Below, piece after piece: positions 1 through 43,579 of a DNA stretch of 64,000 nt (the stretch's first letter is position 1; each line of letters opens with the position of its first letter). The notes below the pieces were generated by a model. The model had not been told where the DNA came from and made no database searches. It saw only the letters and a list, made by a program, of their open reading frames with translations. The DNA is taken from the NCBI GenBank assembly GCA_017444825.1, contig JAFSVU010000020.1, positions 4,374-68,373 of the forward strand, in the 5' to 3' direction. A program made the position numbers and the translations under genes. The stretch comes from Clostridia bacterium. Lineage in GTDB: Bacteria; Bacillota; Clostridia; UBA1212.

Positions 1-738
1 ACAAATATGAAATAGAAACACTTTTCGTAATTGTCAAGTCCCTGAGGCATTTTTTCGATGATCCTGTCCACCACCGCGTAATAGAGGTCCACCGCCCTTC
101 TGACCTTGTCCCTGTCCGATTCGGGATGGTTCAGCCATTCGTTCGGCATATAGTAGGTAAGTTCGTAGGATGTGCCGTAAAAGTCTGAAGAAGGCATCAT
201 GTCGCTGTAGAGAAACAGCTCGGGTCTGTCAAGTCTCAGCGCGTCGATGGCATTGGTTACGGGATAGAAAAGGTCGCTGTCGTAATCGTTCTGGTCAAGC
301 GAATAATCACCGAATTTCTCTGCGTTTTCTTCCACTTTTTCGTAGAACAGTACCTCGTCTGCGCTTTTCAGAGAATCCTTTGCCTTCGGAAGCGATCCGT
401 AAGCTCCCGGATCGAGGTCCTCCGCCAGCCTGTCGCCAAGGGAGTTCATAAGCGTCACAGCCCTTTTTATAATGCCGTCGATCCTTTCGGATGCTTCTTT
501 TTCGATGTCGGAGTTAAATTCCTCACCCGGATCGAAGGAGGTTTCATATTTCGGTTTCAGCGGAGTCGGGTCCGGGGCGTTTGTTTTCTGATCATCCTGA
601 CCTCCGGGCGAGGGGACCCGGTCGTTAGGCACGATTCTTATAATGCCGCATCCGGCCAGGTAGACAACAAGAAGCAGCGCCATAAAAAAAGCGCCGCACC
701 TTCCTATTATTCCGTTACCGCTGAAATATCTTCTCACT
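1..738 (-). CDS. Putative lipoprotein, 3' end beyond window start (start GTG 738 or ATG 683). Signal peptide + lipobox LAGC.
   Basis: Reverse-strand translation gives MRRYFSGNGIIGRCGAFFMALLLVVYLAGCGIIRIVPNDR..., continuing open to position 1. AGGAAAG RBS before GTG. Not in ORF track because it is truncated. Confidence 0.45.
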
Positions 739-752: not shown

Positions 753-1292
753 TTACAGTCCGAAGACTCTTTTTGCTTCGGGGTTCCTTGACGCCATCTC
801 TTTTTTGATCCTCTCGTCGGGATCTATGAAAATGTCGAACTGAACGCCCTCGTCCTTTCCTCTGGCGGTAAAGAAATATATCTCCTCGCTCTCCTCATTA
901 AAGCAGGGGAGCACCTTGTGATTGTTTTCCTTGGCCAGTTTTTCCTTCACCTCCACCTCTTCGGCTTTGGCGATCTTGAACCCCTGGGCGTCTCTGATGT
1001 CGAAGCTCATCACCTTCTTACGCCAGGTCTGGTTCCTTATCTCCGAGATTGTCATCTCGCCCGATACAATAGACAGCTCGTACTCAAGTCTGCTTCTCTT
1101 TATGAGCAATATCGATCCGTAGCATCCGATTCCGGTGATCATGATGACAAGAAGCACGCCGATCAGCTCAAGCAACGCAAAAAGCACCGTGTCTATCGCC
1201 ACAACAGCGACCGCGATCAGTATTATCCAGACCGGGATCATCTTGTTTTTTCTTGCCCTTATAAATGACTCTGTTACGCCATCGTTCATCAT
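753..1292 (-). CDS. Membrane protein with two TM helices and a bacterial PH-like (bPH_2/YdbT-like) domain
   Basis: ORF track 179 aa. Hydrophobic segments IPVWIILIAVAVVAI and LIGVLLVIMITGIG precede a soluble C-terminal domain. Stop 15 nt before the next minus-strand gene. Confidence 0.45.
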   Translation of the reverse strand: MMNDGVTESFIRARKNKMIPVWIILIAVAVVAIDTVLFALLELIGVLLVIMITGIGCYGSILLIKRSRLEYELSIVSGEMTISEIRNQTWRKKVMSFDIRDAQGFKIAKAEEVEVKEKLAKENNHKVLPCFNEESEEIYFFTARGKDEGVQFDIFIDPDERIKKEMASRNPEAKRVFGL

Positions 1293-1384: not shown

Positions 1385-2830
1385 TTACCGAGTCAGCCAG
1401 CTGGCTTGGGCAGTTTCCTGAAGCTTCTGGAGTCCCTCAAGCATGGTCCTCTCGCCGGAGAGATAGCCTTCAACAGCATAGGCGATGTTGATCTCGCCTG
1501 CGGACATCGTAGGCATGAAGCATCCGAGGGAGCCTGCGAAATCCGCGCTTTCAGCAAAGTTCGAGAAAACGGAGGAGTTCTTTCCGGCCTTTGGATACTC
1601 GCGCCAGAATTTCTCCGAGTTTGCTTCCTTGTTAGCGGGAACGGACTGGCCTTGATCCGCATATCCTTCCGCAGCATCTTTTACCGTTGCGTAAAGAGCC
1701 AGATAAGCGCAGGTGCGGTAGAAGTCGTCGTTGTATGTTTCGCTCTTGCCGTGGTTGACCACTGCAAAGCCGTATACATTGGCGGCGATGGCCTGGTGAT
1801 AAATGCCGTTCTCCTCGTAATTGTCATCTTCCCAGCGGGGGAAATGGATGAAATCCCAGGTCCACTTTTCGCCTTCGGACTCCTCGTCCTCGGCCGCCAG
1901 CAGCGCCTCGCTCCATCTTGCGATATCCTCGTGATCCGCAACTATGAATGCGTATTTTGAAATATCATCGGGCTCAATGTCCTTGGAGTTTACGCAGGCA
2001 ACCAGTCCTCTTGCGGGATCGATTATGTCTGCCATATCCTCAAGGCCTTTTACAACGCCGGGATGTGTGAGGTCAAGCTCTTTTACATCTTCGGAGTTTC
2101 CAACGTAGTCATAAATGTCTTGACCGTAGCTTCTTGCGAAAGCGCCCCATATCGCATAGTCGGTATAGTCCATCGCGATCGGAGTCTCAACGCCCTTCTC
2201 CTTCAGCGCCTCTGCGATCTCGACCATGTCGTCCCAGGTCCAGTCGTCGTGGGGGAAAGAGAATCCCGCGTCTCCTATAAGAGAATAGTTGAGGAGCACG
2301 AACTTGTGGTTGTACTCAAGAGCTATCATGTAGACGGATCCGTTGTAGAAGCAGGCTTCGTAAGCCGCGGGAAGCAGGTCCGTTGCGGGGTTGATCTTCT
2401 TATACGTGTCAAAATTCAGGACAGTTCCGATGTACCGGGTCAGATCAATGATCTTGCCCTCCTGGGCATACTTTGCCATTCTCGGCGCATCCAGCAGTAT
2501 AACGTCTCCCGCCTCTGAAAGGTCGTCCGAGTCCATAAGATCGTCCAGTGTCTCAAAGTAGAGCTCCGGGCTTACACGGTCAAGATCGATATTGATCTCA
2601 ACGCTTGGATAGTCGGAAACGAATACCGATTTGTATCTTTCCAGGTTCTGGGCTCTGTCAGCATATAGATATCCTGAAAGTCTGATCTCATTTACAAGAG
2701 CTTCCGGAGTGGGTCTCGGGGTCGCTTTTGGGCCGTCATCGTCCTTTTTCTTCTCGGCGCAACCGAAGAAGCTGAATGTCAGAAGCAATGTCAGAGCGAC
2801 AGCGATAATGATCTTTAAAGCTTTTTTCAT
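1385..2830 (-). CDS. ABC transporter extracellular solute-binding lipoprotein (family 1, carbohydrate-type)
   Basis: Internal start MKKALKIIIAVALTLLLTFSFFGCAEKKK (signal + lipobox) preceded by a perfect RBS (revcomp TAAGGAGGAGGGACAA-ATG). Last gene of the transporter operon. The ORF track's upstream extension overlaps the permease gene and is rejected. Confidence 0.8.
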   Translation of the reverse strand: MKKALKIIIAVALTLLLTFSFFGCAEKKKDDDGPKATPRPTPEALVNEIRLSGYLYADRAQNLERYKSVFVSDYPSVEINIDLDRVSPELYFETLDDLMDSDDLSEAGDVILLDAPRMAKYAQEGKIIDLTRYIGTVLNFDTYKKINPATDLLPAAYEACFYNGSVYMIALEYNHKFVLLNYSLIGDAGFSFPHDDWTWDDMVEIAEALKEKGVETPIAMDYTDYAIWGAFARSYGQDIYDYVGNSEDVKELDLTHPGVVKGLEDMADIIDPARGLVACVNSKDIEPDDISKYAFIVADHEDIARWSEALLAAEDEESEGEKWTWDFIHFPRWEDDNYEENGIYHQAIAANVYGFAVVNHGKSETYNDDFYRTCAYLALYATVKDAAEGYADQGQSVPANKEANSEKFWREYPKAGKNSSVFSNFAESADFAGSLGCFMPTMSAGEINIAYAVEGYLSGERTMLEGLQKLQETAQASWLTR

Positions 2831-2843
2831 TTGTCCCTCCTCC

Positions 2844-3854
2844 TTATTCGATAACACCGATACGCTCGATACCGGCGGCAAGCTGCTTCTGTCCGAAGAT
2901 GTAGACCAGAAGGACCGGGAACATGACCATGAGGCACCCTGCGAAGAGCATCGGTTCCGAGAGAGCTCTGTCAAGCTCCGACATCATCTGGGATGTGGCA
3001 TACTTGTTGAAGTAGTTTCTTATGTTTGCAAGTCTCGGCTGCAGTGTCTGTTTGCCCTCGAGGTACATGTAGGTGGGAGCCTCGTAGTTGTCATTCCAGT
3101 GCCATACGAATGAGAATATGAACACGATGGCTATGGCCGACTTGACCAGAGGCAGCATGATCTGTCCGAAAACTCTGACAGGGCCCGCGCCGTCGATCCT
3201 TGCGGAGTCGTCCAGTACAGGAGGTATTCTCTGGAAGAAGTACATGTAGATCATTACGAACAGCGCGCCGCGGAGACCGAGTCCGAATACCGCAGGCAAC
3301 ACCACAGGTCCCCACGTATTAACAAGGCTCAAAGTCGCCCAGAGTCCGTACGAAGCAAGTATCATAACCTGAGGCGGGATGAGAAGCACCAATACCACCA
3401 GGATGAACACTATGTTCCTGAATCTGAACTTGTAGCGGCCCAGTGAATAACCAATGAGCGCACAGGACAGTGTCTGGAATATTGCCGAAAGCAGCGACGT
3501 TCCGAGGGAGTTAAAGAATGACGGAATGTAGTCGAGAGCCTGGAAGGCTTTCACAAAGTTGTCCCAGTTTACCGTGGTCGGAATGTACTGGACCGTCGGA
3601 TCCATGTAATCCTGCGACGTCATGAGCGACGTACTGAAGATGTAGATAAAGGGCAGAATGAAGAGGAATGCCATCTCAATGAGAACAAAGTAAACAAATA
3701 TTCTCGATATGAAATGCATTATTTTCTTTTTCGCCTTATAACCAAGGTTTTCGTATTTCTTGATGAGGCCTTTTATACCGCCGATGCGTTTCTTTTCGAC
3801 AACACCTGCAGCGTTTTCAGCAGCATTAACGGTTTCTGTTGTCACTTCAGCCAC
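2844..3854 (-). CDS. ABC transporter permease, MalG-like (CUT1 family)
   Basis: 336 aa, 6 TM pattern. EAA-loop-like DDSARIDGAGPVRVFGQIMLPLVKSAIAIVF. Confidence 0.85.
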   Translation of the reverse strand: MAEVTTETVNAAENAAGVVEKKRIGGIKGLIKKYENLGYKAKKKIMHFISRIFVYFVLIEMAFLFILPFIYIFSTSLMTSQDYMDPTVQYIPTTVNWDNFVKAFQALDYIPSFFNSLGTSLLSAIFQTLSCALIGYSLGRYKFRFRNIVFILVVLVLLIPPQVMILASYGLWATLSLVNTWGPVVLPAVFGLGLRGALFVMIYMYFFQRIPPVLDDSARIDGAGPVRVFGQIMLPLVKSAIAIVFIFSFVWHWNDNYEAPTYMYLEGKQTLQPRLANIRNYFNKYATSQMMSELDRALSEPMLFAGCLMVMFPVLLVYIFGQKQLAAGIERIGVIE

Positions 3855-4780
3855 CTCCTCGTAAACAGTATGAATATGAGTATGACCGCGAGCGTGGCAA
3901 GCATGTACAGCCAGCTGAGAGCGGAAGCCTGTCCGTATTTCGTACCCTCCTGAGTCATGCTGTTCATGATGCTCATAACAGGGTTGTCGGAAGCAACGAA
4001 GGAGTCAACAAGAGCATAGATGCAGTTCAGGATCACGAAAGGTGAAATGTAAGGCAGCGTAACGTGCCAAAAACTTTCCCAGGCGGTAGCACCGTCGATC
4101 TCAACGACCTCGTAGAGGATCGCCGGAACACTCTGGAGCGCTGCGAGGAAGATCAGTATCTCAACACTGCTGGCCCACATGATTGAGCCTATGTTGCTCA
4201 TGATCGTTCCGAAGAAAGTATTTATCTCAGCGGAGCCCGTGGTGATGGAGCTGAATACGCTCATGTTTCCTACGCCATCCGCAAAGAGGTAAGTCATAAT
4301 GGTTCCGGCAAGGATGACCGGGATGAAGAATATGACACGGAACACTGTCCTTCCCGGGAACTCCTGCTTAAGGAGCACAGCCACGAACAGCGAGAACGCA
4401 ACGATGACAGGCACCTTAATGAGAGACATACCGAAGGACTTAAACACCGTTTCACCTACGGACGGATCCTGGATGACCTTAACGTAGTTGTTGATGCCAA
4501 CGAACGTACTGGTTCCCTGGAATCCGTAGAGGTCTGTAAGAACCGTCTGGAAGAAGCTGATCCTTACGGACAGCACCAGCGGCACCACTATGAAACCGAG
4601 AAAACCTATCAGCCAGGGGATCGAGAAAACGAATCCTTCAAGGTTGCGTCTTTTCTCAAAAGACATCAGAGTGTATTTTTGAGAATGCGCAAGCTTCTTT
4701 TTATACTTAATCTGTTTCAAATCAACCGGCCTCCCTTCTTTATCCGACATTAACGGTCTCGAATGCGCCGTTTGTGACAA
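3842..4780 (-). CDS. ABC transporter permease, MalF/UgpA-like (CUT1 family)
   Basis: 312 aa with N-terminal basic region then TM helices. Overlaps the downstream permease by 13 nt (translational coupling). Confidence 0.85.
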   Translation of the reverse strand: MSQTAHSRPLMSDKEGRPVDLKQIKYKKKLAHSQKYTLMSFEKRRNLEGFVFSIPWLIGFLGFIVVPLVLSVRISFFQTVLTDLYGFQGTSTFVGINNYVKVIQDPSVGETVFKSFGMSLIKVPVIVAFSLFVAVLLKQEFPGRTVFRVIFFIPVILAGTIMTYLFADGVGNMSVFSSITTGSAEINTFFGTIMSNIGSIMWASSVEILIFLAALQSVPAILYEVVEIDGATAWESFWHVTLPYISPFVILNCIYALVDSFVASDNPVMSIMNSMTQEGTKYGQASALSWLYMLATLAVILIFILFTRRWLK

Positions 4781-7469
4781 GGCCTATGCCAAGAGCCGGA
4801 ACAACTCCGTCCTCGGTCTCAAAAGCCTCATCTCCGTAGTTAACATAAACCTTAATGCCGTTGCTGTACTCGGTGCAGTAAACATTACCGGATCTTGCTC
4901 CGTCAACGCAACGGTGGCCGGTGATCTCTGCGGCAGCAACAGGGGCGAGCACTTTGTCGGCTATTACGTAGCCCTTCTGAATATCCTTCGAAAGTTCTCC
5001 GTACTGTGCCTTGAAAAGTGAATTGTAGTTTGTGTATCTGAGTTCCTCGGTGGGCTCATGGGTCACTTCGTATGTGAGAAATGCGCCGTACTCAATGGAT
5101 CTCAGGATGGTCTTGGTGTAGTCGGAGCTTCTGTTGACGGCAGATGAATAGTAATCAACCAGTCCGTGATACACGATCTCAAGAAGCGGCACAGACTCAT
5201 CGATGGAGAAGAGTCTCGAGGTCTCCGTAGGAATGTCGAGGATGTTGTCGGCGACTGAAGCCGCATACTCATAGCCATAGTATACCGATACGGTGTCGAA
5301 TACCTCTTTGTACTTCACGATCCAACTGCGGTAGTATTCCAGTCCCTGCTGGCGGAGAAGAGCATTCTCCTTGTTATAGTCGGTATAAAGCAGATTGCCA
5401 AGCTGCTGGAGGTCAAGGTTCTTAAAGCCGAGCTTTGAGAGGTTCTTGATGTCGTTGCTCAGCATCTTGTTGTTGTAGTAGCGGGGGCTCATGTAGTAAT
5501 AGTCCGAATCCCTTCTGAACACGCCCGCGGTGCTGACCAGCTTATAGTTAACGTAGAACGTACCGGGATTCTTTACGACTGCCTGCCTGAGACTTGCGCC
5601 CTTCGGATTTCCGTAGAGTATGAGCATGTTCACGTCAGCAGAGACGGTGGCATCGCTCTCCGCAGCATAGGAGTTGAGATCCTTCAGACCGCCGGAGCCG
5701 CCCATAGCCAGACCGATGTTGTATTTCCGCGTAATGTTTCCGTAGTAGCCGTTCTGCTGCCAGCCCAGCACGGAGTAGCGGATCTTCGGCAATACCGTCT
5801 TAGTGTCGCCGATAATATCCTTTATCTGACCGAAAGTGGTCATGACCTTATAAGTCGGGAATATGGATACCGAAGCCCTGTTTATGTCAGCCACAAAGAC
5901 CTTGAGGTTGAGCACGTCAGGATTCTTGTTCTTGTTCTCCTCAGTGTTTACATCCACCTCGGAATTCTTCAGATAATCAAGGGTCTTCTTATCGTTGCCC
6001 CACTTCTCAATGATAAAGTTTCTGATGTTCTTGGCCACATCCACGTATGAGTAGTCCTTTGAGCTGTCGATCTCAAACATGTATTTCATGGTGAAATCGC
6101 CAATGCCGGACGGAACCTCGAGGAATGTGTACTCGGAACCGCCGTTGCTGAGCTTCGCCTGGTAGAACTCTCTCCACTTGAAGTAATATGAAATGTAGTA
6201 GAACGGGAGGCTCTTCGTGCCGGGCTTGCCCATGAGGATGGAAGCATTGGCTTCGCTCTCGGTAGCAAAGCATGTGAGCATCACTTCGTCGTCGATCGTG
6301 CCGAAAGCGGGAAGCGATATGGTCTCATTGGTCATATTCGGGTAGTTGAACACGTCGAATATGTCGTCGTAGCCGTAAATGCGCTTCTGGTACTCGTCGT
6401 ATGTGGAAATACGGGGCACGTCAAAATATGTGAGACCGCCTGAGCCGTCGGGAGTCACGTAATAACCGCTGTCGCCCTGTCTCTTTGCGCTGATAAAGGG
6501 CAGGCAGGCTATGGAAGCAACTCTCGGCATCTCGTCGGAATCATTGTCGTAGTCCTTTTCCTCCTTGTCCTCATGGACATCCTTCTTGGGAACGTTCACC
6601 ACGAGGTCGCCGTTTTCATCAAGGTAGAACTCAACGCCAATGCTGAACTCATAATTGACCTTGTAGGTCTCCGCCATGTTGTTGGTCTTGGTGATCTCAA
6701 CGGGGATGGTGTATTTAACCTTGAAGCCGTTTTCGATCATGTAATACTCGATGGTAAGCTTATCGTTCTGGTTGATACCCCAGTCCTTTCCTCCGTCAAG
6801 GTTGGAAGCGGTCCAGCCGAGTCTTACAAGAGACGAAATGATGTCATGGTTCTTCTTGTACTTCGGGTAGGGATCGTCTTTGGTGGCGGGATCCATCTCG
6901 CTTTCAAGCGGCGCTGGCCAGCTTCTGATCTCTTTTCTGTCGCCTTTTGCATTGGTTATGTCAAGGATCAGCAGCTGATCGGCAGGCGAGAACTTAAGGA
7001 TTGTCTCACCGCCCTGGCTGTTTTTGACCTTTGCGATCTCGGTCATGCCGGCATCCAGATCAATGCCGGCGCCCACAGGCTTGGGATCGTTCATGACGAT
7101 ATAGTCGCGAAGCCATTTGATGTAGCCGACGTTTCCGCCGAATATTACTTTGTATACTACGAAGACAGCCACGAGGACCACTATCACCGAAATGGTGGTG
7201 GCGATGATCCTGTTTCTCTTCTTTTTCTTTCTCTGCTGCTCGAGGAACCTTTCGGCCTCCTCTTTGTCGACGTAGACATTTCTCTTTACATTTTCCTCGT
7301 CCAGAGACTTGGAGAACAGAGAGGGCTTGTTCTCTTCGGGATTTTCGGTGCCCTGAGTTTTGTCGACAGGATTGGTTTCTGCGGCATTTTCCGGGGTCGT
7401 TCCCTCTATAGTCGTGTTGACTTGAGCAGCGTCTTTATCAGTTTCGGTCTTCTTTATTTTCTTAGACAA
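4740..7469 (-). CDS. Large type-II membrane protein, glycoside-hydrolase-like extracellular domain. Uncharacterised family, paralogous to CDS 41723-43579.
   Basis: 909 aa. TTG start at 7469 with AAAGGAG RBS. About 90 aa of charged N-terminus, then TM IIATTISVIVVLVAVFVVY, then a large ectodomain. Shares GG.SGGLKDL / LGWQQNGYYG / PLLEIVYHG motifs with the cytoplasmic paralog LDGWGKMGYD / GGAEGMKDL / PLFTLVYHE. Confidence 0.6.
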   Translation of the reverse strand: MSKKIKKTETDKDAAQVNTTIEGTTPENAAETNPVDKTQGTENPEENKPSLFSKSLDEENVKRNVYVDKEEAERFLEQQRKKKKRNRIIATTISVIVVLVAVFVVYKVIFGGNVGYIKWLRDYIVMNDPKPVGAGIDLDAGMTEIAKVKNSQGGETILKFSPADQLLILDITNAKGDRKEIRSWPAPLESEMDPATKDDPYPKYKKNHDIISSLVRLGWTASNLDGGKDWGINQNDKLTIEYYMIENGFKVKYTIPVEITKTNNMAETYKVNYEFSIGVEFYLDENGDLVVNVPKKDVHEDKEEKDYDNDSDEMPRVASIACLPFISAKRQGDSGYYVTPDGSGGLTYFDVPRISTYDEYQKRIYGYDDIFDVFNYPNMTNETISLPAFGTIDDEVMLTCFATESEANASILMGKPGTKSLPFYYISYYFKWREFYQAKLSNGGSEYTFLEVPSGIGDFTMKYMFEIDSSKDYSYVDVAKNIRNFIIEKWGNDKKTLDYLKNSEVDVNTEENKNKNPDVLNLKVFVADINRASVSIFPTYKVMTTFGQIKDIIGDTKTVLPKIRYSVLGWQQNGYYGNITRKYNIGLAMGGSGGLKDLNSYAAESDATVSADVNMLILYGNPKGASLRQAVVKNPGTFYVNYKLVSTAGVFRRDSDYYYMSPRYYNNKMLSNDIKNLSKLGFKNLDLQQLGNLLYTDYNKENALLRQQGLEYYRSWIVKYKEVFDTVSVYYGYEYAASVADNILDIPTETSRLFSIDESVPLLEIVYHGLVDYYSSAVNRSSDYTKTILRSIEYGAFLTYEVTHEPTEELRYTNYNSLFKAQYGELSKDIQKGYVIADKVLAPVAAAEITGHRCVDGARSGNVYCTEYSNGIKVYVNYGDEAFETEDGVVPALGIGLVTNGAFETVNVG

Positions 7470-9603: not shown

Positions 9604-10473
9604 TTACTTGATACCCGAGTGGGCCATCGTATCCATAACGCTCGACTGGGAGACGATGAATACGATAATACTCGGAACAGTCATGATGAGTGAGGCTGCG
9701 GCATTAGCACCTTGTCTTGCAAGACCACCCTGCAGGGTGCTCATGAAGAATGCAAATGTACGGAGCTGCTCCTCATAAATGTAGGTCGTGGAAGCCGAGC
9801 TGTCATTCCAGATGCCCGGGAACGTCAGGATGACGCAGGTCGCCTGGGCATTTCTTAAGAGAGGCAAAGCTATCTTTGTGTACAGCTGCCATTCGGAGGC
9901 ACCGTCTATCTTTCCGGCTTCAAATATGGAATCCGGCACCTGGTCAAGGAACTGCTTCAAGAGGAACATACACGTGCAGTTTGCAAGTCCCGGGATGATA
10001 TATACCAGATAGGTATTGTCCAGATGAAGACCCGTAACGATTATGTAGGACGGGATGGCCGCAGCACCGGATATGATAAGGAGCGCGTTAGTAACGAGCT
10101 TGAAAAGTCCCTTCGCACCGGGGAATTTGTGCTTTGAAAGCGGGTAGCAGGCCATCGTTCCGACGACTATCATTGCGAAAATGTACAGCACCGTGATAAG
10201 CACAGTGTTGAACAGGTATCTTGTGAACGGAACCATCGTGTTTGAAGTAATGCTCACAAGGTCGGTGAAATTCTTGAGTGTCGGGTTGGACACGTAGAAT
10301 CTCGGCGGATAGAGGAACAGCTCTTCGGCAGGCTTGAATGCCGTAACCACGAGGTAGATCAGAGGCAGAAAGGATACAATGCCCGCAAATCCAAGTAAGA
10401 TCGAAATTACGGTCGGAGCATATTCTCTGCGTTTCTTGGCTTTCTTTAAATAATCAACGTCTACTTGAAACAC
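9604..10473 (-). CDS. ABC transporter permease, MalG-like (second pair)
   Basis: 289 aa. EAA-like EAGKIDGASEWQLYTKIALPLL. Confidence 0.85.
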   Translation of the reverse strand: MFQVDVDYLKKAKKRREYAPTVISILLGFAGIVSFLPLIYLVVTAFKPAEELFLYPPRFYVSNPTLKNFTDLVSITSNTMVPFTRYLFNTVLITVLYIFAMIVVGTMACYPLSKHKFPGAKGLFKLVTNALLIISGAAAIPSYIIVTGLHLDNTYLVYIIPGLANCTCMFLLKQFLDQVPDSIFEAGKIDGASEWQLYTKIALPLLRNAQATCVILTFPGIWNDSSASTTYIYEEQLRTFAFFMSTLQGGLARQGANAAASLIMTVPSIIVFIVSQSSVMDTMAHSGIK

Positions 10474-10479
10474 CTGTCA

Positions 10480-11484
10480 TCACCCCTTATCACTTAACAG
10501 CCTGAAGGCAAGTCTTCCTATACCGAGAACCAATGCGGAGAGCACGACGGCGATGGCCGAAGCATAACCGACCTCAAAACGCTGTCCGGCATAGTCTCCA
10601 AGGTGAAGCATGATTGTAAGACCGGCATCCTCAGGGCTCGGGTGTCCCACAAGGGCCTGGCTTATTCCGCCTACCGTAAACGAACCGGTTATCGTAAGGA
10701 CCGCGGAGAAGAGCAGCTGAGGCATCGTCTGCGGTATGTCAATGTAGATAAGTCTCTGGAATCTTGATGTGATACCGTCGACCATGGCCGCGTCGTAGAG
10801 TTCCTTATCAACGTTGGTGAATCCGGCGACGAAAGAAAGGAATCCGGTACCCAGTGAAGACCACAGCGAGACTATGATGATTACAGGCATGATCCAGTTG
10901 ACATTCTGAAGGAACTGTATAGGCTCCGTGATCAGGCCCGCATTGAGCAAAGCTGAGTTTATGTAACCCTGGCTGTCGTTTGCGAAAACCACCAGCCATA
11001 CGACGCTGAGCGCCACGCCGCCGGTAAGGGAAGGCGCGTAGAAGGCCAGTGTGTAGAGCGGCTTCAGCCTCTTCGGAACCTGGTTGATGAACCAGGCGAA
11101 GAAGTACGACGCAATGTAGGAAACAGGTCCGACTATGATCGCGTAGTACAGAGTGTTGCTGAAGGCCTTCAGGAACAGGCTGTCCTCAACGAAGAGGTAG
11201 AGGTAGTTGTCCCAGAAGATGAACCTCGGAAGGCTCAGCGCGTTGAAGTAGAAGAAGCTCAGCGCAGCCGAAGCGATAAGAGGCAACAGCGTGAATGTGA
11301 TGAAGCAGATAAAGAAGGGAGCGATCAGCGCATACGACATCTTGAACTGGCCCATCTCATGGAGCTTAAAGCGGAAATACGATTTCGTATAATCCTTCTT
11401 TTTCTTTCCGGTGGCCAATTCCTGATTGTCGGAATCGACTACCACAGAAGGCTCATTTTTGAGTTTCTTTTCTTTTTTGCTCAT
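10480..11484 (-). CDS. ABC transporter permease, MalF-like (second pair)
   Basis: 334 aa. YDAAMVDGITSRFQRLIYIDIP EAA-like loop. Long basic N-terminus. Confidence 0.85.
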   Translation of the reverse strand: MSKKEKKLKNEPSVVVDSDNQELATGKKKKDYTKSYFRFKLHEMGQFKMSYALIAPFFICFITFTLLPLIASAALSFFYFNALSLPRFIFWDNYLYLFVEDSLFLKAFSNTLYYAIIVGPVSYIASYFFAWFINQVPKRLKPLYTLAFYAPSLTGGVALSVVWLVVFANDSQGYINSALLNAGLITEPIQFLQNVNWIMPVIIIVSLWSSLGTGFLSFVAGFTNVDKELYDAAMVDGITSRFQRLIYIDIPQTMPQLLFSAVLTITGSFTVGGISQALVGHPSPEDAGLTIMLHLGDYAGQRFEVGYASAIAVVLSALVLGIGRLAFRLLSDKG

Positions 11485-11485
11485 A

Positions 11486-14400
11486 TCAGCCCTCCCCCTT
11501 TCTAGTCGACCAGATTATCGAGAAGTCTTCCTTTATAAGGTTACCCTCGCTGTCAAACGCATCATTGAAGAATTCTTTCTGTTTACGTTTCATTTCTTTG
11601 TTGATCTCCCTGACGGCATCCTCGAGAGCGATCCTGATGTTGTCGCCCTGAAGAACGGACTGGTTGAGCGCTGTCAGGAGGTAACGGTCTGTGTAGTATC
11701 CTCCGAGAACCACGGGGTATTCGGTGAAGTACTTCCACTGCTCGTTGATGACTTCCAGCTCATCGTCGCTGTATGCCATGTTGTTTATGGCAAGCTTGTT
11801 GGCTGTGTTCCATCTCGAAGCAACGCCGAACGTGGCCTCGACTTCCTGAGCATACTTGACCTGGATCTCCTCGCTCATCCACCACTTGACGAATTCCCAG
11901 CCTTCGGCTGCGTGGTTTCTGTCGCCCTCGTTTCTGATGAGGATGCAGGTGGTTCCGCTTCCGCCCATGCTTCTGTCAACCGTGCCGTCCTCTTTGAGAT
12001 GTCCCGGAACAGGCGACATAGCCCATTTACCGTTGATCTCAGGAGCGGAATATTTGAGCTGGCAGTAGAGGCCCATATCCGCAACTCCTATCGGCATGTC
12101 GCCGAGCTTGAACTTCATGTAGAAGTTGGATGCGTAAGGAATATTGTATTTATTGTAAAGGTTGGCGTACTCGTAGAAAGCATCGTATGCTTCTGCCGAA
12201 TCCAGGTTGGAGTGGAGACCGTCCGCGTCGTAAACCGACGCGCCGTTCTGGTAAAGGAACGGGTACATGTTTCCGACACCGTAGTTATAGCAGAAATCCA
12301 TGCTCTTTTCCTGGAGTCTCGGAAGTATCTCGTATACCTCTTCCCAGGTGTCCGGAGGATTCTCTATACCCAGTTCCTCCATGATATCCGTTCTGTAGAA
12401 GAGGGCCACCCAGTTCTGGGTCTCCGGCACCGTGTAATACATTCCGCGGTATCTGGAAAGCGTGTAGTTTCCGGGGAGGAAGTTCTCATCGAAATATGTG
12501 TAGAAATCGGTGTTTTCATCCTCCACGCCGTCTCCGTCGAGGTCGTTGTACGCCACCAGAGCGCCTCTGGCGGCATATTCGACAGGCGACCTGTTGCCTA
12601 CCGAGATGGCCACGTCAGGAGCGGTCTTCGTAACATAGCGCAGCATGACGAGGCCTTCGACATTCTGTACCATGTTAACGTTTACTCTGATATATTTCTC
12701 TTCGGTGACCCCGTTAACCGTCACTGCGCGTTTCACCGGTGTGAAGTCCTCGGCGATGAGGGCTCTCAGCATCTCGACGTATTCACGTCCTCTGCCGATA
12801 TAGACCTCGATCTCCTCGGTCTGGTTTTTAGAGGGGTCTTCTCTTGCGCCGACAACGGAGTAATCCTTTACCCAGGAGTCTCCGAATTTGATGGCGCCTA
12901 CGTAGAAGGACTGGAAGCCGTTACTGCGGCATTTATCATAGTTGAACTCGCCGCCGTGAATGACCATGTAATCGATGGCGATGGGCTGCTCGGTGATATT
13001 CTGAAGGGTTGTTGAAAGGCTCGAAAGAGCGTTTGAAATTTCGTTCAGGGATGCGGGAATGTCCTCAAGGCCCTCCGTACCTCTGGCAAGTCTCTCGAAG
13101 AGAGCTTTTGCCACGGCAACGGACGATCCGTAATAAGGGGTGACATCGCCGTTGGCGGCCTTGATCTCGTTAAATATCCTCTCGAAGGTGTCGCGGTAGT
13201 TTGCGATCTCTTCTTCGATTCCCATGATGTATTTATCGAGGTCCCAGTCTCTGTTCTTATCAACGCTGTATCCGCCGGTGGAGCTTCTCGTCGCGCCTGT
13301 GATGTTAACGACCATGCTGATAAGCTTTGAGATCGAATCCATGGACTCTTTGAGACTCTGGATGGCCTTTCTCAGGGGGCCGACCTTCGATGTGATGCTT
13401 ATGGTGTGGGTGCCCTTTGTGAGGTAGAAGTAATAAGGCTGCTGATTTTCGTCTATCAGCGAGGAACCTGCCCATCCGTCTGTGTACGGGAAGCAGTACT
13501 CCTCCATCTGTTCGAAGGGGATCTCGCCGTCAATGTTGATCTCGGCGTACACCGCGATATCCGTCAGTGTATTCTGGTATCTGAAACCGATCTGGTACCA
13601 GCCGTCTTTCTCTACGTTAAAGCTCCAGGAGGCACCGTCGCCGCCGTTGGCCCATCTGTCGCCGCCGAAATAGTTATATCTTGTGACCTTGTAGGATGCG
13701 GGTGATGAAGCATAGTCGCCGTCCCACTCGCTTCTGATGCTGATGGTGTTCTTTGTGTCGGGTACCTCAAACTCTACCTTGGTAAGGCCATCCTTAACGA
13801 TAGCGCTCTCGGAGAAGGAGTTCCGGACCTTGTACTCTTCATAAGTGAGAGACTTGAGAGGAGCCTTCAGTGTGATGGTTTTGATAATAACGGGCTCTCT
13901 TCCGAAGGTGAGCGATATAGTCCTCGGTTTGTCTGCAGATGCAAGGGAGCTGGCGTTGATCAGGAACCTGTAGGGGTTTCTGTAAAGACCTTCGGGATTC
14001 TGAAGAGTGGTCGTCTGCCACATGAAAAGTTCCTGCTGCTGGTTGCGGATCTCGTTTCCTCCGAAATCAAGGCTCTTTTTATCGAAGAATCCGTAAACAC
14101 GCTTAAGCTCGATGCTGGCGGCTTCCTTGAAGGGGTACTTGTTATCTACACTCAGACGGACCAGGGTGTTGTTAGATCTGTTCTCCGGGAGAAAATACTC
14201 AACGTCCATTGAGTAAAGAGCGGTCTCGGGCACATCAGGTTTGTAGATAAACGTGATCTCCTCGATGGCGCTGGAGGAACCGTCACCCGCATCGTTTCTG
14301 CCGAAATATATGGCGGAGGGGTCTGCCTTGATGGTTCCGGAGGCCTCGGTGAACCTGTCTTTCTGATTCGAAGCCGATGTGTAACCGTTCTCGTCTCTGC

Positions 14401-14911
14401 CCTCTTCGATGTCGACCTTGTAGGTAAAACCGTAATCCTCGTCAAAGCTGATGTGATTTACGATCCTCTCGATCTTCCTGACGACCTCCTCGGTGGCAAA
14501 AGAGAATTCTCCGTTAAGGACCTTCCCGTAATCGTAGTTCTTACCGCGGTAGGAGACGTTTTTGTATTCACCGTTATCGTCGCGGTAGAGGTAAAGTGTG
14601 TCGCCGCTGTCGATCTTAAAGCTGATGCCGTAAAAATCTGTAGCGTTAATGACAATATCTTCACCCGCGTAGGACTCGTATTTCTTGTCACCGTACTTCT
14701 TCAGTACCTTTCCGTACTCGAGGAGACTGTTATCGGATCTCTCCTCATAATCGGCAAAGGGGTTGAAGTCAAGAATATCGTCGTTTTCGACTTTGAACTG
14801 CTTGACATCCGCCTTGCGGCCGCCATAGATAAAGAGAGCCGCAATAATGGCAACGACAAGCACTGCAAAAATCACCAAAACGATAATTTTACGCTTTTGT
14901 TTCTTGTCCAT
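11486..14911 (-). CDS. Giant membrane-anchored solute-binding protein. N-terminal TM, ~650-aa extension with a beta-sandwich CBM-like segment, and a C-terminal family-1 SBP domain.
   Basis: 1141 aa. MDKKQKRKIIVLVIFAVLVVAIIAALFIYGG anchor. Middle segment NGGDGASWSFNVEKDGWYQIGFRYQN is CBM-like. The C-terminal ~450 aa (WVALFYRTDIMEELGI...PDTWEEVYEI...) resemble extracellular solute-binding proteins. First gene of the operon. Confidence 0.7.
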   Translation of the reverse strand: MDKKQKRKIIVLVIFAVLVVAIIAALFIYGGRKADVKQFKVENDDILDFNPFADYEERSDNSLLEYGKVLKKYGDKKYESYAGEDIVINATDFYGISFKIDSGDTLYLYRDDNGEYKNVSYRGKNYDYGKVLNGEFSFATEEVVRKIERIVNHISFDEDYGFTYKVDIEEGRDENGYTSASNQKDRFTEASGTIKADPSAIYFGRNDAGDGSSSAIEEITFIYKPDVPETALYSMDVEYFLPENRSNNTLVRLSVDNKYPFKEAASIELKRVYGFFDKKSLDFGGNEIRNQQQELFMWQTTTLQNPEGLYRNPYRFLINASSLASADKPRTISLTFGREPVIIKTITLKAPLKSLTYEEYKVRNSFSESAIVKDGLTKVEFEVPDTKNTISIRSEWDGDYASSPASYKVTRYNYFGGDRWANGGDGASWSFNVEKDGWYQIGFRYQNTLTDIAVYAEINIDGEIPFEQMEEYCFPYTDGWAGSSLIDENQQPYYFYLTKGTHTISITSKVGPLRKAIQSLKESMDSISKLISMVVNITGATRSSTGGYSVDKNRDWDLDKYIMGIEEEIANYRDTFERIFNEIKAANGDVTPYYGSSVAVAKALFERLARGTEGLEDIPASLNEISNALSSLSTTLQNITEQPIAIDYMVIHGGEFNYDKCRSNGFQSFYVGAIKFGDSWVKDYSVVGAREDPSKNQTEEIEVYIGRGREYVEMLRALIAEDFTPVKRAVTVNGVTEEKYIRVNVNMVQNVEGLVMLRYVTKTAPDVAISVGNRSPVEYAARGALVAYNDLDGDGVEDENTDFYTYFDENFLPGNYTLSRYRGMYYTVPETQNWVALFYRTDIMEELGIENPPDTWEEVYEILPRLQEKSMDFCYNYGVGNMYPFLYQNGASVYDADGLHSNLDSAEAYDAFYEYANLYNKYNIPYASNFYMKFKLGDMPIGVADMGLYCQLKYSAPEINGKWAMSPVPGHLKEDGTVDRSMGGSGTTCILIRNEGDRNHAAEGWEFVKWWMSEEIQVKYAQEVEATFGVASRWNTANKLAINNMAYSDDELEVINEQWKYFTEYPVVLGGYYTDRYLLTALNQSVLQGDNIRIALEDAVREINKEMKRKQKEFFNDAFDSEGNLIKEDFSIIWSTRKGEG

Positions 14912-15030: not shown

Positions 15031-15059
15031 ATTATAAGTTTTTTGGTTATTTGTGTCAA
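15031..15059 (-). promoter_or_regulatory. Sigma-A-type promoter for the ABC uptake operon (revcomp TTGACA-17-TATAAT)
   Basis: Minus strand reads TTGACAcaaataaccaaaaaactTATAAT. It sits ~110 nt upstream of the 14911 start codon. Confidence 0.5.
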
Positions 15060-17104: not shown

Positions 17105-17110
17105 CTCCCG

Positions 17111-18622: not shown

Positions 18623-18658
18623 ATTGATCCTTCCGTTTTTTCCTGGATTCAGACACTA

Positions 18659-18688
18659 ATTTTACTTTATGGGAAAGCTCATTGTCAA
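18659..18688 (-). promoter_or_regulatory. Putative promoter for the MBOAT-DHHW pair (revcomp TTGACA-18-TAAAAT)
   Basis: Minus strand reads TTGACAatgagctttcccataaagTAAAAT, about 35 nt upstream of the start at 18622. Confidence 0.4.
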
Positions 18689-40065: not shown

Positions 40066-41709
40066 ATGTTTTACAGAATCGTTTCTTCTCTCGACAAATG
40101 CTTTCCGGATATGAAAGCCGGGGATTTCAAGGAGCTCACCTCCTTTTCGATGCTTCGGAACGAGCGGTATTCTTTTCAGCTCTGTTACGACTCGGAGCCC
40201 GGCACAAATCTTGCATCCGCTCCCACGGAGATATTCATAGAATCACCCTTAAGCGAATACATAAAGCTTTACAAAGTGCGGTGCGTCCCTTCGGAGCACC
40301 CCGTTTCCGCCGGTTTCTACGACGAAAACTACGAGCGCATTAAACCGGGCCTCTTTCCGGACGTGCTGGAACCGATGTCTCCCGGCGAGCGGATCTTAAA
40401 GAGCGACTCTCTCAACGCCATCTGGTTTGAAGTCGACCCCTGCGGCAAAGCCGCGCCGGGAACGTACCCGATCACGGTAAAGCTTCTTTCCCCCGGAAAG
40501 GAAGAGCGGGTCTCCGTAAGCTGTGAGATCATTGGCGCATCTCTTCCGGATACGGATTTTATTTTCACCCAGTGGTTCCACGTGGACTGCCTGAAGGATT
40601 ATTACCTCACCGGGGACTACGACGACAGGCTATGGAAGATCATTGGCGATTTTGCCGCAAACGCAGCGAGATACGGCCAGAATATGATCCTCACGCCGGT
40701 CCTCTCGCCCGAGCTTGACACGTTTCCGTCCATTTACAGGACCAACGTGCAGCTGGCAAAAATAAAGGCGGATAACGGGGTCTACAGCTTCGATTTTTCA
40801 CGCCTCGGGAAGTGGATCGCCCTTTGCGAAGAAAAAGGTATCAAATATTTTGAGATCAACCACCTCTTCTCCCAGTGGGGCGCCGCGAAATGTCCTCAGG
40901 TCTGGGCTGTCAAAGACGGGGTGTATCAGAGAATCTTCGGCTGGGAAAACGATGCGGACAGCGAGGAGTACATTGGTTTTTTGAAGCAGTTCCTGCCTGC
41001 CCTCGTAAGATACCTTAAGAGAAAAAAGGTGCTTGACAGGTGCTTTTTCCACATATCCGACGAGCCGAATATCACCATGCTTGAGCACTACGGTAGGCTC
41101 GCATCCGTCGTAAAGCCTCTTCTCTCCGGAAGACCCGTGATGGACGCCCTGTCCGATTACGATTTTTACGAGAAGGGTATCTGCGACATTCCGATACCGT
41201 CGAACGATCACATTGGTCCGTTTATCGAGCACAAGGTGCCGGGCCTTTGGACGTATTACTGCTGCGGTCAGTGGAAGGACGTTTCCAACAGGTATTTTTC
41301 TATGCCCTCCGCCAGAAACCGTGCCATTGGCGTCCAGTTCTGGAAGTTCAACATCAAGGGATTTTTGCAGTGGGGGTATAACTTCTACAATTCCTTCCTT
41401 TCGTTTACAAAGATCAATCCGTTCCTCACCACAGACGGCGACGGCTTCGTGCCCTCGGGAGATACCTGTTCCGTGTACCCGGGCCGTGAGGAGACTCCCC
41501 TCCCTTCCCTCCGCGAAGTTGTGTTTTTCGACGCTCTTCAGGACATGAGGGCCCTATACCTGCTGGAGAGCTTCATCGGGAAAGACGCCGCGCTGGCCAT
41601 TGTGGAGAACGGTATCGAGCCCGTCTTATTCAACAGATTCCCGTATAGCAGAGATTTCGTTCTGGGCCTTAGAGAAAGGATCAACGCCGAAATCAAAAAA
41701 CATATTTGA
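40066..41709 (+). CDS. DUF4091-like putative glycoside hydrolase (GH123-like, DE catalytic pair in HISDEP)
   Basis: 547 aa, no signal peptide. FHISDEPN contains an Asp-Glu pair like the GH123/GH20 retaining hexosaminidase catalytic dyad. Assignment from memory of family signatures. Confidence 0.5.
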   Translation: MFYRIVSSLDKCFPDMKAGDFKELTSFSMLRNERYSFQLCYDSEPGTNLASAPTEIFIESPLSEYIKLYKVRCVPSEHPVSAGFYDENYERIKPGLFPDVLEPMSPGERILKSDSLNAIWFEVDPCGKAAPGTYPITVKLLSPGKEERVSVSCEIIGASLPDTDFIFTQWFHVDCLKDYYLTGDYDDRLWKIIGDFAANAARYGQNMILTPVLSPELDTFPSIYRTNVQLAKIKADNGVYSFDFSRLGKWIALCEEKGIKYFEINHLFSQWGAAKCPQVWAVKDGVYQRIFGWENDADSEEYIGFLKQFLPALVRYLKRKKVLDRCFFHISDEPNITMLEHYGRLASVVKPLLSGRPVMDALSDYDFYEKGICDIPIPSNDHIGPFIEHKVPGLWTYYCCGQWKDVSNRYFSMPSARNRAIGVQFWKFNIKGFLQWGYNFYNSFLSFTKINPFLTTDGDGFVPSGDTCSVYPGREETPLPSLREVVFFDALQDMRALYLLESFIGKDAALAIVENGIEPVLFNRFPYSRDFVLGLRERINAEIKKHI

Positions 41710-41722: not shown

Positions 41723-43579
41723 ATGTCACCGTTCCAGTTTAAAACCGACGATCTGTCAGTATCATACGACCCCGAGACCCTTTCTCTGACCGCCGCCTCC
41801 GGCGGAGAGACCTGGAGGACCAAACCGGGCTCCGAAACTTATATCGTATCCCGAAAATTCGGGAACATTCCCTTCGCCTCCGCAAAATGCGAAGCCTCAG
41901 CTTACAAAACAGGCACCGTTTCGGGGGTAAAGGCGGTCTACACCTTCGAGGAGAGCGGCATCACGGCCGTCACCTACGTATTTGCCGAAGGATATGACGA
42001 CACACTCCACTGCGAATTTTTCCTGAAGGGAGACATTTCCTCCGACGTAAGGGCCGTCTACTGGCCTGCGCCCCTTGAGTTTAACGCGGACGACGGCTGC
42101 ACCGTACTTCCCAAGATGCAGGGAGTCCTTCTTCCCGCAAAGTGGGACGGGAAGGTTCCGAACTTTCAGAACTGGCAGATGCTGTCGAGAGATTTTTACA
42201 TGCCATTTGCCGGCCAGGTCAGAAACGGCTCCGGCTGCATGATGATATTTGAGACACCCTGGGACGCAAACTGCTTCGTGGACCACATCCCCGGAGGCGA
42301 CACCACACTGGTTCCCTACTGGAGACCGTCTCTCGGCCACTACTCGGCGCATGACAAGAGAAAGCTCAGCTACCGCTTCCCGAAAAATGCCGATTACAAT
42401 CTTTTTGCGAAAATTTACAGAAAATACGTGTGCGAGCACGGCGATTTTGTAACGCTCCGCCAGAAGGCAGAAACCAATCCCAACGTATCCTACATGACGG
42501 GTACGCCGGTCTACATTGACGGCATATGCACCATGATACACCCGGACTCGGAAGCCTACGACAAGGCCCACCCCGAAAGAAACACCCACGTGTGCAGGTT
42601 CGAGACCGTTGGCGAAAGGCTCGACATGCTGAAAAAGGAAGGCTTTGAGAAGATCTACCTCCATCTGGACGGATGGGGAAAGATGGGCTACGACAGGCTC
42701 CACCCGGACGTATTCCCGCCCTGCCCCGAGGCCGGCGGCGCTGAAGGCATGAAGGACCTTAGCGACAGGTGCAGAGAGCTGGGCTACAGGTTCGGTATCC
42801 ACGACCAGTTCAGGGATTACTATTTCGAGGCGGAGACGTTTGACATGGACAACGTGGCGGTGGACGAGGCCGGCGGCTATGAGTGCTACAACGTGTGGTG
42901 CGGCGGTCCCCAGACCTTTATGTGCCCCGAGCTCAGTCCCCAGTACGTCCGCAGGAACTACGCCACCTTCGACAGCCTCGGCATAGGCATCGACGGCACG
43001 TACCTTGACGTGTTCTCGGTGGTAGATCTTGACGAGTGCTTTAACGAGAAACATACGGTGACAAGAAAAGACTGTGTAAAATACCGCAGAGAGTGCTATG
43101 ATTTTCTGAACAAAAAAGGTATAATCACATCTTCGGAGGAGGCTGTTGACGCAGTTCTTCCCTCGTTTGTGCTCTGCCACCACGCGCCCTTCGCCGTTGA
43201 CGAGCTTTCGTCCTCCACCGGCAAGGCTGTGGGCATTCCGATACCGCTGTTCACGTTGGTTTATCACGAGTGTTTGATCGTGCCCTGGTTCGGCATCGAT
43301 AAAAAAGGCGGCTGGCACATTCCGATCACGGACAGCGGCTACCTCTACGCACTTCTTACGGGCGGCACAGTTTACGTATGGCCGGGCATGACGAAGGAGG
43401 AGCGCAGACGGGCGGATATCGCATTGGCGCTTCAGGCCGAGGTCTGGGACAAGGAGCTTGTCTCCCATGAGTTTATTGACGGAAACCCCCGCAGACAGCG
43501 TTCGACGTTCGCGGGCGGCACTACAGTTACAGTTGATTTTGAAACGGAGGAATTTAGTATAAGCCATGCTTCCAATTGA
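41723..43579 (+). CDS. Cytoplasmic glycoside-hydrolase-like protein, paralog of the 909-aa membrane protein (uncharacterised family)
   Basis: GGAG RBS then ATG 41723 (MSPFQFKTDD...). Motifs LHLDGWGKMGYD, GGAEGMKDL and PLFTLVYHE are shared with CDS 4740-7469. Confidence 0.55.
   Translation: MSPFQFKTDDLSVSYDPETLSLTAASGGETWRTKPGSETYIVSRKFGNIPFASAKCEASAYKTGTVSGVKAVYTFEESGITAVTYVFAEGYDDTLHCEFFLKGDISSDVRAVYWPAPLEFNADDGCTVLPKMQGVLLPAKWDGKVPNFQNWQMLSRDFYMPFAGQVRNGSGCMMIFETPWDANCFVDHIPGGDTTLVPYWRPSLGHYSAHDKRKLSYRFPKNADYNLFAKIYRKYVCEHGDFVTLRQKAETNPNVSYMTGTPVYIDGICTMIHPDSEAYDKAHPERNTHVCRFETVGERLDMLKKEGFEKIYLHLDGWGKMGYDRLHPDVFPPCPEAGGAEGMKDLSDRCRELGYRFGIHDQFRDYYFEAETFDMDNVAVDEAGGYECYNVWCGGPQTFMCPELSPQYVRRNYATFDSLGIGIDGTYLDVFSVVDLDECFNEKHTVTRKDCVKYRRECYDFLNKKGIITSSEEAVDAVLPSFVLCHHAPFAVDELSSSTGKAVGIPIPLFTLVYHECLIVPWFGIDKKGGWHIPITDSGYLYALLTGGTVYVWPGMTKEERRRADIALALQAEVWDKELVSHEFIDGNPRRQRSTFAGGTTVTVDFETEEFSISHASN

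Follow-up and report, generated by a model that had tools for sequence, protein, structure and literature searches.

By combining profile searches, structure prediction and a comparison of homologous loci, we identify in a 64,000-nucleotide stretch of a Clostridia bacterium genome (GenBank assembly GCA_017444825.1, contig JAFSVU010000020.1, positions 4,374 to 68,373; the window from here on) a putative remote extracellular relative of the alpha-glycosidases of glycoside hydrolase (GH) families 129 and 101. This protein, the product of open reading frame (ORF) A, belongs to the uncharacterised Pfam family DUF5696 and is encoded within a set of ATP-binding cassette (ABC) transporter genes that recurs in all 80 of the homologous loci we examined. 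On balance, ORF A probably processes glycans at the cell surface as part of a composite ABC importer. New here for DUF5696 are the assignment of its fold, the observation that the catalytic residues of GH129 and GH101 are not conserved in it, a set of alternative candidate carboxylates and the invariant gene cassette. A second protein of the window, ORF B, was paired with ORF A in an earlier note made from the DNA letters alone, which took the two for an extracellular and a cytoplasmic form of one unassigned glycosidase-like family; ORF B proves to be already known in kind.

ORF A matches the DUF5696 model (PF18952) with an E-value of 2.1e-117 and 393.6 bits against a gathering cut-off of 25.6, over model positions 7-610 of 612, and is a core member of the family by this full-model match; an identical protein is already deposited from a Clostridia metagenome-assembled genome (MAG; locus tag IJS71_04000). 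When 1.84 billion cluster representatives were searched with a profile, at least 3,884 clusters of 50% identity matched at E<1e-30, and carriers, which are Bacillota only within the sample examined, are widespread among rumen and gut Clostridia and soil Paenibacillus. The PDB yielded no solved structure of a DUF5696 member, and no NCBIfam model matched ORF A, ORF B or the GH123-like and N-acetylhexosamine kinase (NahK) proteins encoded beside ORF B. The sole hydrophobic segment of ORF A (residues 88-106, mean Kyte-Doolittle hydropathy 2.85) is preceded by eight Lys or Arg within 15 residues, and in the AlphaFold2 model a single long helix (residues 69-109) stands behind a disordered K/E/T-rich N-terminal tail. 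Because of this combination, the straightforward reading is a single-pass N-in/C-out ('type II') signal anchor that would hold the ectodomain outside the cell. An extracytoplasmic location is predicted family-wide, since of 72 diverse members, whose alignment underlies all DUF5696 conservation statistics given here, 59 reach a score of 1.8 or more in an N-terminal hydrophobic segment, be it a transmembrane (TM) anchor, a signal peptide or a lipobox, and just 2 are entirely without a hydrophobic N-terminus. ORF B has no such segment (maximum 0.19 over 19-residue windows starting within its first 60 residues). Hydropathy and model thus agree with the localisations given in the earlier note, membrane-anchored and extracytoplasmic for ORF A and cytoplasmic for ORF B.

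In its AlphaFold2 model (predicted local distance difference test, pLDDT, 78.5; predicted template modelling score, pTM, 0.81), the ORF A ectodomain is a three-domain structure of the GH129/GH101 alpha-glycosidase type, in which a (beta/alpha)8 barrel stands between two beta-sandwich domains. The top Foldseek match in the PDB is ZgGH129 (DagB), an exo-alpha-1,3-(3,6-anhydro)-D-galactosidase of Zobellia galactanivorans (5opq, E 9e-30, TM-score 0.70; also 8rzk), followed by NagBb, the crystallised GH129 alpha-N-acetylgalactosaminidase of Bifidobacterium bifidum (5wzn, E 1e-23, TM-score 0.71), with target-normalised TM-scores of 0.70-0.73 for the two enzymes. GH101 enzymes (E about 1e-16), a GH36 galactosaminidase, other GH36 enzymes, GH31 and GH97 form the tiers below. 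It is because of this ranking that we regard ORF A as a remote relative of GH129 and GH101. ZgGH129 (E 5.5e-15) and NagBb (E 3.9e-10) are also the best PDB matches of DUF5696 by sequence profile; a single-sequence search of the PDB with ORF A gave a chance match only, so that profiles are needed to find its homologues. ORF A does not match Pfam Glyco_hydro_101, and its similarity to GH101 is structural and second-tier only.

With NagBb, ORF A shares the three-domain fold, W570, R706, H768, a GGxxGLKxL helix and a PLxxxVYH motif, but it differs in being extracellular, membrane-anchored and part of an ABC cassette, in its identity of about 15% to the GH129 family, and in an insertion of about 30 residues with a YGxD motif that sets it apart from GH129 at large. 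ZgGH129 resembles it further in its extracytoplasmic location, although that enzyme is a soluble periplasmic dimer from a carrageenan locus of Bacteroidota. The GH101 endo-alpha-N-acetylgalactosaminidases EngBF and SpGH101 are likewise extracellular and have the same type of barrel, but are far larger multi-domain proteins anchored in the cell wall, with TM-scores of only 0.26-0.41.

The kinship of ORF A and ORF B, which the earlier note had read from three shared sequence blocks, is marginal by BLASTP (E 0.025, 20% identity over 231 columns). Both proteins exceed the DUF5696 cut-off, ORF B with 72.5 bits. A profile of 24 ORF A relatives matches ORF B with 95% probability in hhalign, and profile-profile comparison of 72 relatives of ORF A with 36 GH129 homologues of ORF B (the set behind all conservation statistics on that side) gives 99.8% probability and E 5.2e-28 over 582 columns that cover the three domains. 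We accept the homology because of this family-level comparison, BLASTP alone being marginal, and we take it as decisive that the two proteins, as their sequences stand, are real but very distant homologues. The shared blocks (LGWQQNGYYG/LDGWGKMGYD, GGSGGLKDL/GGAEGMKDL and PLLEIVYHG/PLFTLVYHE) lie in register in the top BLASTP and hhalign alignments, and the glycosidase-like nature of both proteins is borne out by Pfam, profile and fold matches, including the sandwich-flanked barrel that structure prediction was to look for. The description of the two as paralogs of one family in two locations does not hold: DUF5696 and GH129 are about 15% identical over aligned columns, and the catalytic carboxylates of GH129 are unconserved in DUF5696. 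The same note had called the family unassignable, possibly of DUF type, which is right for ORF A but not for ORF B, a member of GH129 with its crystal structures.

ORF A is the fifth of nine minus-strand genes running from 14911 down to 753 (Table 1), the first seven of which, with gaps of -41 to +12 nucleotides (nt) between neighbours, encode a giant solute-binding protein (SBP), permeases A1 and A2, a protein with NHL and Yip1 domains, ORF A, and permeases B1 and B2. In a locus scan with one genome per species, we confirmed 530 relatives and examined the best 80 loci, those most like the query. BLASTP with the operon proteins recovered the same series (with NHL alone or NHL/Yip1) on one strand in 80 of the 80: the seven-gene order is complete in 65, colinear but truncated at the edge of a contig in 14, and extended by an additional permease pair in one. 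The loci come from rumen and gut Oscillospiraceae and Lachnospiraceae, many Paenibacillus species, Bacillus caseinilyticus and a Limnochordaceae MAG, and identity of their DUF5696 proteins goes down to 23%; the cassette is also intact around the two most distant homologues of the protein search (P0026 and P0025). Orthologues of permease pair A hold the same position in every locus with a long enough flank, and pair B lies directly downstream of DUF5696 in every locus with flank. Literature searches on Yip1/NHL/ABC/SBP and on GHL family names found no description of this cassette.

Outside this core the neighbours are variable, comprising extra SBPs (29 loci), AraC-type response regulators (13), GH30 (7), GH10 with CBM4_9 (6), GH106 (5) and, behind the cassette of one distant locus (L088), GH36. 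Directly upstream of the cassette in the window (15293-21811, minus strand) lie genes for an AlgX-like SGNH protein (15293-17104), an MBOAT O-acyltransferase (17111-18622) and a Melibiase-like GH36 protein (19700-21811). The last gene of the operon, for a DUF6106 protein, is kept in 6 of the seven closest loci, L001-L007.

The AlphaFold2 model of the giant SBP (pLDDT 86.4) consists of an N-terminal TM helix, three beta-sandwich domains, a helical bundle and a MalE-like domain, to which oligosaccharide-binding SBPs are the closest structures in Foldseek. The N-terminal domains gave no clue to the substrate, Foldseek matches being dominated by the MalE-like domain; some homologues match CBM_35 or Golvesin_C. 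The NHL/Yip1 protein has six hydrophobic segments at its C-terminus, and the end of its gene overlaps the start of ORF A by 8 nt. Its two parts are fused in the window and in related Clostridia and are separate adjacent genes in Paenibacillus (for example L055, 7026-8474 and 8443-9084), a pattern of fusion and splitting which suggests that they work together. The longest reading frame of the second SBP begins with a TTG that lies 131 nt inside the upstream permease gene; its true start is probably Met48 (nt 2833), from which a lipoprotein signal, MKKALKIIIAVALTLLLTFSFFGC, ending in FFGC, would follow. With two BPD_transp_1 permease pairs and two SBPs, the operon has the components of an importer of the CUT1 type. 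None of its nine proteins matches ABC_tran, and the only such match among the scanned ORFs of the window is FtsE-like and lies beside FtsX. Firmicutes CUT1 importers usually share an ATPase that is encoded elsewhere.

The co-inheritance of these genes, their operon-like packing, the oligosaccharide type of the SBP and the glycan-utilisation genes around the cassette all point to an importer role. We suggest that ORF A, on the outer side of the membrane, would cleave or trim a glycan captured by the SBP with its carbohydrate-binding modules (CBMs), and that the products would pass to the two adjacent permease pairs, energised by a shared ATPase encoded elsewhere. The substrate would most likely be alpha-linked, because the structural relatives of ORF A are all alpha-glycosidases. 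The Yip1 domain may organise the importer complex, as reported for YknW, which belongs to the Yip1 family and serves as an accessory or assembly subunit of the ABC transporter YknWXYZ of Bacillus (PMC4887032). The likeness to YknWXYZ lies in a Yip1 protein that organises an ABC complex, the link being the Yip1 Pfam match only, and that transporter is an exporter of the MacB type rather than a CUT1 importer.

Compared with the polysaccharide-utilisation loci of Gram-positive bacteria that are built on CUT1 importers, the cassette is familiar in its SBP with two BPD_transp_1 permeases, in having no ATPase gene in the locus, and in the glycosidases and AraC-type response regulators that adjoin many of the loci. 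It is unlike them in placing two permease pairs in one operon, in the size of its SBP (1,000-1,150 residues, TM-anchored and with three extra beta-sandwich domains), and in the fixed position of NHL/Yip1 and DUF5696 between the permease pairs. The MBOAT and AlgX-like genes directly upstream, on the same strand, could instead be taken to mean that ORF A remodels the envelope or exopolysaccharide of its own cell rather than serving nutrient foraging, and the AlgX-like gene is indeed kept in six of the seven closest loci (L001-L007, of which L005 is without upstream flank). This gene is confined to these closest relatives, however, and absent from the remaining loci, and in the window it is separated from the cassette by a promoter-like site that matches the consensus at 12 of 12 positions. 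The giant SBP, moreover, has a domain like those of oligosaccharide-uptake SBPs, and SBP-dependent permeases of the CUT1 type are importers. We therefore consider envelope remodelling improbable and hold to a role of ORF A in glycan import.

How ORF A might act on a glycan is a matter of its active-site residues, for which we used hhalign to place the invariant residues of GH129 on the DUF5696 alignment, reading the confidence of each column. Six pairs are aligned with confidence of 0.8-0.9 (GH129 residue first): W318=W570, C439=D697, N441=N699, R448=R706, E472=Y730 and H515=H768; in addition, the P-x-M-Q-G loop of GH129 pairs with a P-D-G-S-G loop in DUF5696 at about 0.9. At the end of beta4 the register is uncertain (confidence about 0.1), although the lack of a conserved nucleophile holds in any register. 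The metal-site columns 566, 568 and 612, equivalent to H314, D316 and H360 of GH129, are likewise unconserved, the first two being variable and the third acidic in 39 of the 72 members. The equivalents of the beta4 Asp and beta5 Glu of GH101, positions located through the GH129 alignment and not by direct alignment to GH101, are also unconserved. The catalytic acid pair to be looked for in both proteins is present in ORF B (D429/E472), whereas at the catalytic positions of GH129 DUF5696 conserves no carboxylate. By model and alignment, DUF5696 keeps the fold of GH129, while the positions of the nucleophile, the acid/base and the metal site are not conserved in it.

Other carboxylates are strongly conserved in DUF5696. 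D341 in the PDGSG loop of the N-terminal domain is acidic in 99% of the members, D368 in the YGxD motif of the DUF5696-specific insertion in 93% and D697 in the beta4-alpha4 loop in 90%, and nearly all members have an acid at 757 or 758 (DExVP or TDTVP, after beta6). W570, R706, Y735, H768 and N779 are conserved as well, and all the conserved pocket-type residues of the barrel lie in beta-to-alpha loops of the AlphaFold2 model. E793, which is 100% acidic, was considered as a catalytic residue and rejected, as it stands at the C-terminus of the helix before the last barrel strand, on the non-catalytic face; its role is probably structural. We infer that any catalysis by DUF5696 would use the relocated carboxylates D697, D757/E758, D341 and D368 instead of the GH129/GH101 pair. 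With a pair formed by the beta4 loop and the position after beta6, DUF5696 would come closer in its catalytic layout to clan GH-D (GH27, GH31 and GH36) than to GH13, GH101 and GH129.

Several observations weigh against a glycan-processing role as we propose it. The column paired with the GH129 acid/base E472 (730, confidence about 0.9) holds Y22 E12 N10 D9 Q5 S4; in the region around the end of beta4 that would contain the nucleophile, no column from 683 to 690 is more than 33% acidic among the 72 members; and the residue behind the shared H768 is always Gly in DUF5696 but D/E in GH129. D686 of ORF A, which pairs with the nucleophile D429 of GH129, was rejected as a nucleophile, both for its hhalign confidence of about 0.1 and because relatives of more than 38% identity have V, A, T or E there and most members Ser or Ala. 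Even the position of D697 is non-acidic (Asn, Ser, Thr or Tyr) in 7 of the 72. The glycosidase families that flank the cassette vary by lineage, DUF5696 members outside the cassette may exist beyond the best 80 of the 530 loci, and full-text literature searches for DUF5696 and PF18952 found no paper and no assayed member.

Part of this evidence would equally suit a pseudo-glycosidase, that is, a non-catalytic glycan-binding or scaffold ectodomain serving as an obligate accessory of the importer, for docking of the SBP or NHL protein or for substrate gating. Such a protein would be expected to have lost the nucleophile, the acid/base, the metal site and the acid after the shared His, all of which are unconserved, and could tolerate replacement of D697 in about 10% of members; its rigid place between the permease pairs in 80 of 80 loci, while the flanking glycosidases vary, suits a generic structural role, and a Yip1 protein is documented as an assembly factor of an ABC transporter (PMC4887032). 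Yet four carboxylates, together with polar and aromatic residues on the catalytic face, are 90-100% conserved at 20-25% sequence identity, which looks more like an active site. ZgGH129, moreover, shares only the nucleophile with NagBb, has a changed, relocated acid/base and depends on an Asp recruited from the N-terminal domain (D202), and it remains active (PMC5698469). It is a precedent for the same fold with relocated catalytic residues, as we propose for DUF5696, and in a HMMER alignment its D202 lies about five residues from the conserved D368 of ORF A. It differs from DUF5696 in that its beta4 nucleophile D486 is kept, and HMMER could not align the second half of its barrel with DUF5696. 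On this evidence we regard a purely non-catalytic ORF A as rather unlikely, and a glycan-processing ORF A stays our preferred reading.

We also propose, tentatively and as a possibility short of probable, that the importer is a composite machine in which ORF A is an obligate, physically coupled subunit beside the NHL/Yip1 protein, the giant SBP and the two permease pairs, be it as a GH family with relocated carboxylates or as a pseudo-glycosidase receptor. Tying a glycosidase-like ectodomain to a transporter has an analogy, with no claim of homology, in 4F2hc and rBAT, type II membrane proteins that partner transporters and whose GH13-like ectodomains are without catalytic residues. 4F2hc is unlike the cassette in being eukaryotic and in having amino-acid exchangers as partners.

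ORF B, by comparison, can be assigned with confidence. Its alignment with NagBb (5wzn) by phmmer has an E-value of 3.5e-121 and is full-length, residues 5-614 aligning onto 3-629. NagBb E478, presumably the acid/base, corresponds to ORF B E472. D435, named as a catalytic residue of NagBb (PMC5698469), corresponds to D429. D429, E472, W392, H314, D316, H360 and H515 are invariant among the 36 homologues, and all but the last figure among the likenesses of ORF B to NagBb, together with the full-length homology and the lack of a signal sequence. On these grounds ORF B is a predicted full-length GH129 alpha-N-acetylgalactosaminidase with both catalytic residues kept. It differs from NagBb at Ile265 (window 42515-42517), which is His in NagBb and in 34 of the 36 homologues. 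The NagBb 'quadruple mutant' 5wzq is altered at four residues (H, H, D, H), for which ORF B has H314, D316, H360 and Ile265, and from the comparison of the 5wzn and 5wzq sequences the replaced His is presumably a metal ligand. Since an identical protein occurs in another sample (P0175), Ile265 is not a sequencing error of this window.

The neighbours of ORF B, described earlier as nahK and a DUF4091 protein, are a NahK homologue, confirmed by its match to PDB 4ocu (E 1.1e-88; 4wh1 about 1e-88), and a GH123-type protein, 'DUF4091' being GH123_cat in current Pfam, which matches 8k2l, a monosaccharide-releasing beta-N-acetylgalactosaminidase (E 1e-131). Neither of these nor ORF B carries a signal sequence, and the order GH123, GH129, NahK and PfkB is the same in a relative whose GH129 shares 79% identity. 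As in salvage of the galacto-N-biose/lacto-N-biose (GNB/LNB) type, a hexosamine kinase lies beside glycosidases that release N-acetylgalactosamine (GalNAc), with junctions of +13 and -14 nt. The context of an exo-beta-N-acetylgalactosaminidase and NahK is consistent with a GalNAc activity of ORF B, and the operon as a whole is, by prediction, a conventional cytoplasmic GalNAc salvage module for the release of alpha- and beta-linked GalNAc and its phosphorylation at C1. The Pfam DUF5696 model cross-matches true GH129 enzymes (proteins P0175-P0294), few of which carry Glyco_hydro_129 (PF11308), and it is because of this cross-matching that GH129 enzymes like ORF B bear the public labels 'DUF5696 domain-containing' or 'hypothetical'. 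ORF B also weakly matches the Pfam GH101 model. Some Oscillospiraceae contigs have two GH129-type genes with one unannotated gene between them (L091, 4656-6521 and 8001-9842; the same in L092), which suggests a local duplication.

From the shared blocks and the place of ORF B next to nahK and a DUF4091 protein, the earlier note had derived a two-stage pathway in which ORF A would make a first, extracellular cut and ORF B a second, cytoplasmic one in glycans containing N-acetylhexosamine (HexNAc). That the two are remote homologues, that both lie in one 64-kb window, and that the operon of ORF B handles GalNAc, would fit such a scheme. The genes, however, are separated by 34 kb and belong to different operons, one on each strand, and within 10 kb of the 80 DUF5696 loci there is no homologue of GH129, GH123 or NahK, the only cross-matches in that scan being those of the GH129 query to DUF5696 itself. 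More distant GH129 homologues occur without the cassette, their neighbours being NAGPA and phosphodiesterase genes, GH29, GH95 and GH5 genes or a further copy of GH129. In soil Paenibacillus the cassette is frequent beside GH30, GH10 and GH106 genes; these and GH36, the glycosidases that flank it elsewhere, are not HexNAc enzymes. ORF A is also without the catalytic and metal-site residues of NagBb, so that HexNAc specificity cannot be transferred to it from ORF B. The pathway is thus unsupported, and we consider it very improbable.

Table 1. Features of the two operons in the window, with domains of ORF A
Feature	Position	Strand	Basis or remarks
ORF A, 909-residue DUF5696 protein	4740..7469	-	K/E-rich cytoplasmic tail, one TM anchor, GH129-like ectodomain (predicted)
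Signal-anchor TM helix of ORF A (about residues 88-110)	7140..7208	-	Hydropathy peak 2.85, modelled helix
N-terminal beta-sandwich of ORF A (about residues 125-470)	6060..7097	-	DSSP of model; bears PDGSG loop (D341) and YGxD motif (D368)
(beta/alpha)8 barrel of ORF A (about residues 545-805)	5055..5837	-	W570, D697, R706, Y735, D757/E758, H768, N779, E793
C-terminal beta-sandwich of ORF A (about residues 849-907)	4749..4925	-	DSSP of model; aligns with GH129 C-terminal domain
Promoter-like site TTGACA-17-TATAAT	15031..15059	-	12/12; about 120 nt upstream of first gene; consensus match only
Giant SBP, first operon gene, 1141 residues, TM-anchored	11486..14911	-	Pfam SBP_bac_8
Permease pair A (10480-11484, 9604-10473)	9604..11484	-	Pfam BPD_transp_1
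NHL/Yip1 protein, 709 residues	7462..9591	-	Signal peptide, NHL beta-propeller, C-terminal multi-pass Yip1 domain (Pfam)
Permease pair B (3842-4780, 2844-3854)	2844..4780	-	Pfam BPD_transp_1
Second SBP	1385..2974	-	Pfam SBP_bac_8/1
DUF6106 small membrane protein, last operon gene	753..1292	-	Pfam
Terminator-like hairpin with T-run behind last gene	674..697	-	
GH123-type exo-beta-N-acetylgalactosaminidase, cytoplasmic (predicted)	40066..41709	+	13 nt upstream of ORF B; Pfam GH123_cat E 5e-94
ORF B, cytoplasmic GH129 alpha-N-acetylgalactosaminidase homologue, 618 residues	41723..43579	+	Nucleophile D429, acid/base E472 (predicted)
N-acetylhexosamine 1-kinase (NahK) homologue	43566..44693	+	14-nt overlap with ORF B end
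PfkB-family sugar kinase	44846..45757	+	Pfam PfkB; synteny

Elsewhere in the window, a Bac_rhamnosid6H (GH78-like) protein (29456-32053) and a 626-residue protein with a weak, sub-threshold GH99 match (37375-39255) are further glycosidase-like genes, which suggest a broadly glycan-degrading organism. The segment from 56000 to 64000 has a G+C content of 0.41-0.43 against 0.50-0.55 in the remaining window, encodes a TetR regulator, an AAA_21 (AbiEii-like) ATPase and a DUF6273 protein, and may be an acquired island.

For annotation, our analysis means that a GH129 function can be assigned with confidence to homologues like ORF B despite their public labels. If ORF A is an active enzyme, DUF5696 would be a new GH family with an unusual catalytic layout within the fold group of GH101, GH129, GH36 and GH31, and thousands of 'hypothetical' genes in polysaccharide-degrading Firmicutes would gain a function. 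If it is instead a coupled or non-catalytic subunit, the cassette would represent a new architecture by which Gram-positive bacteria capture and import glycans.

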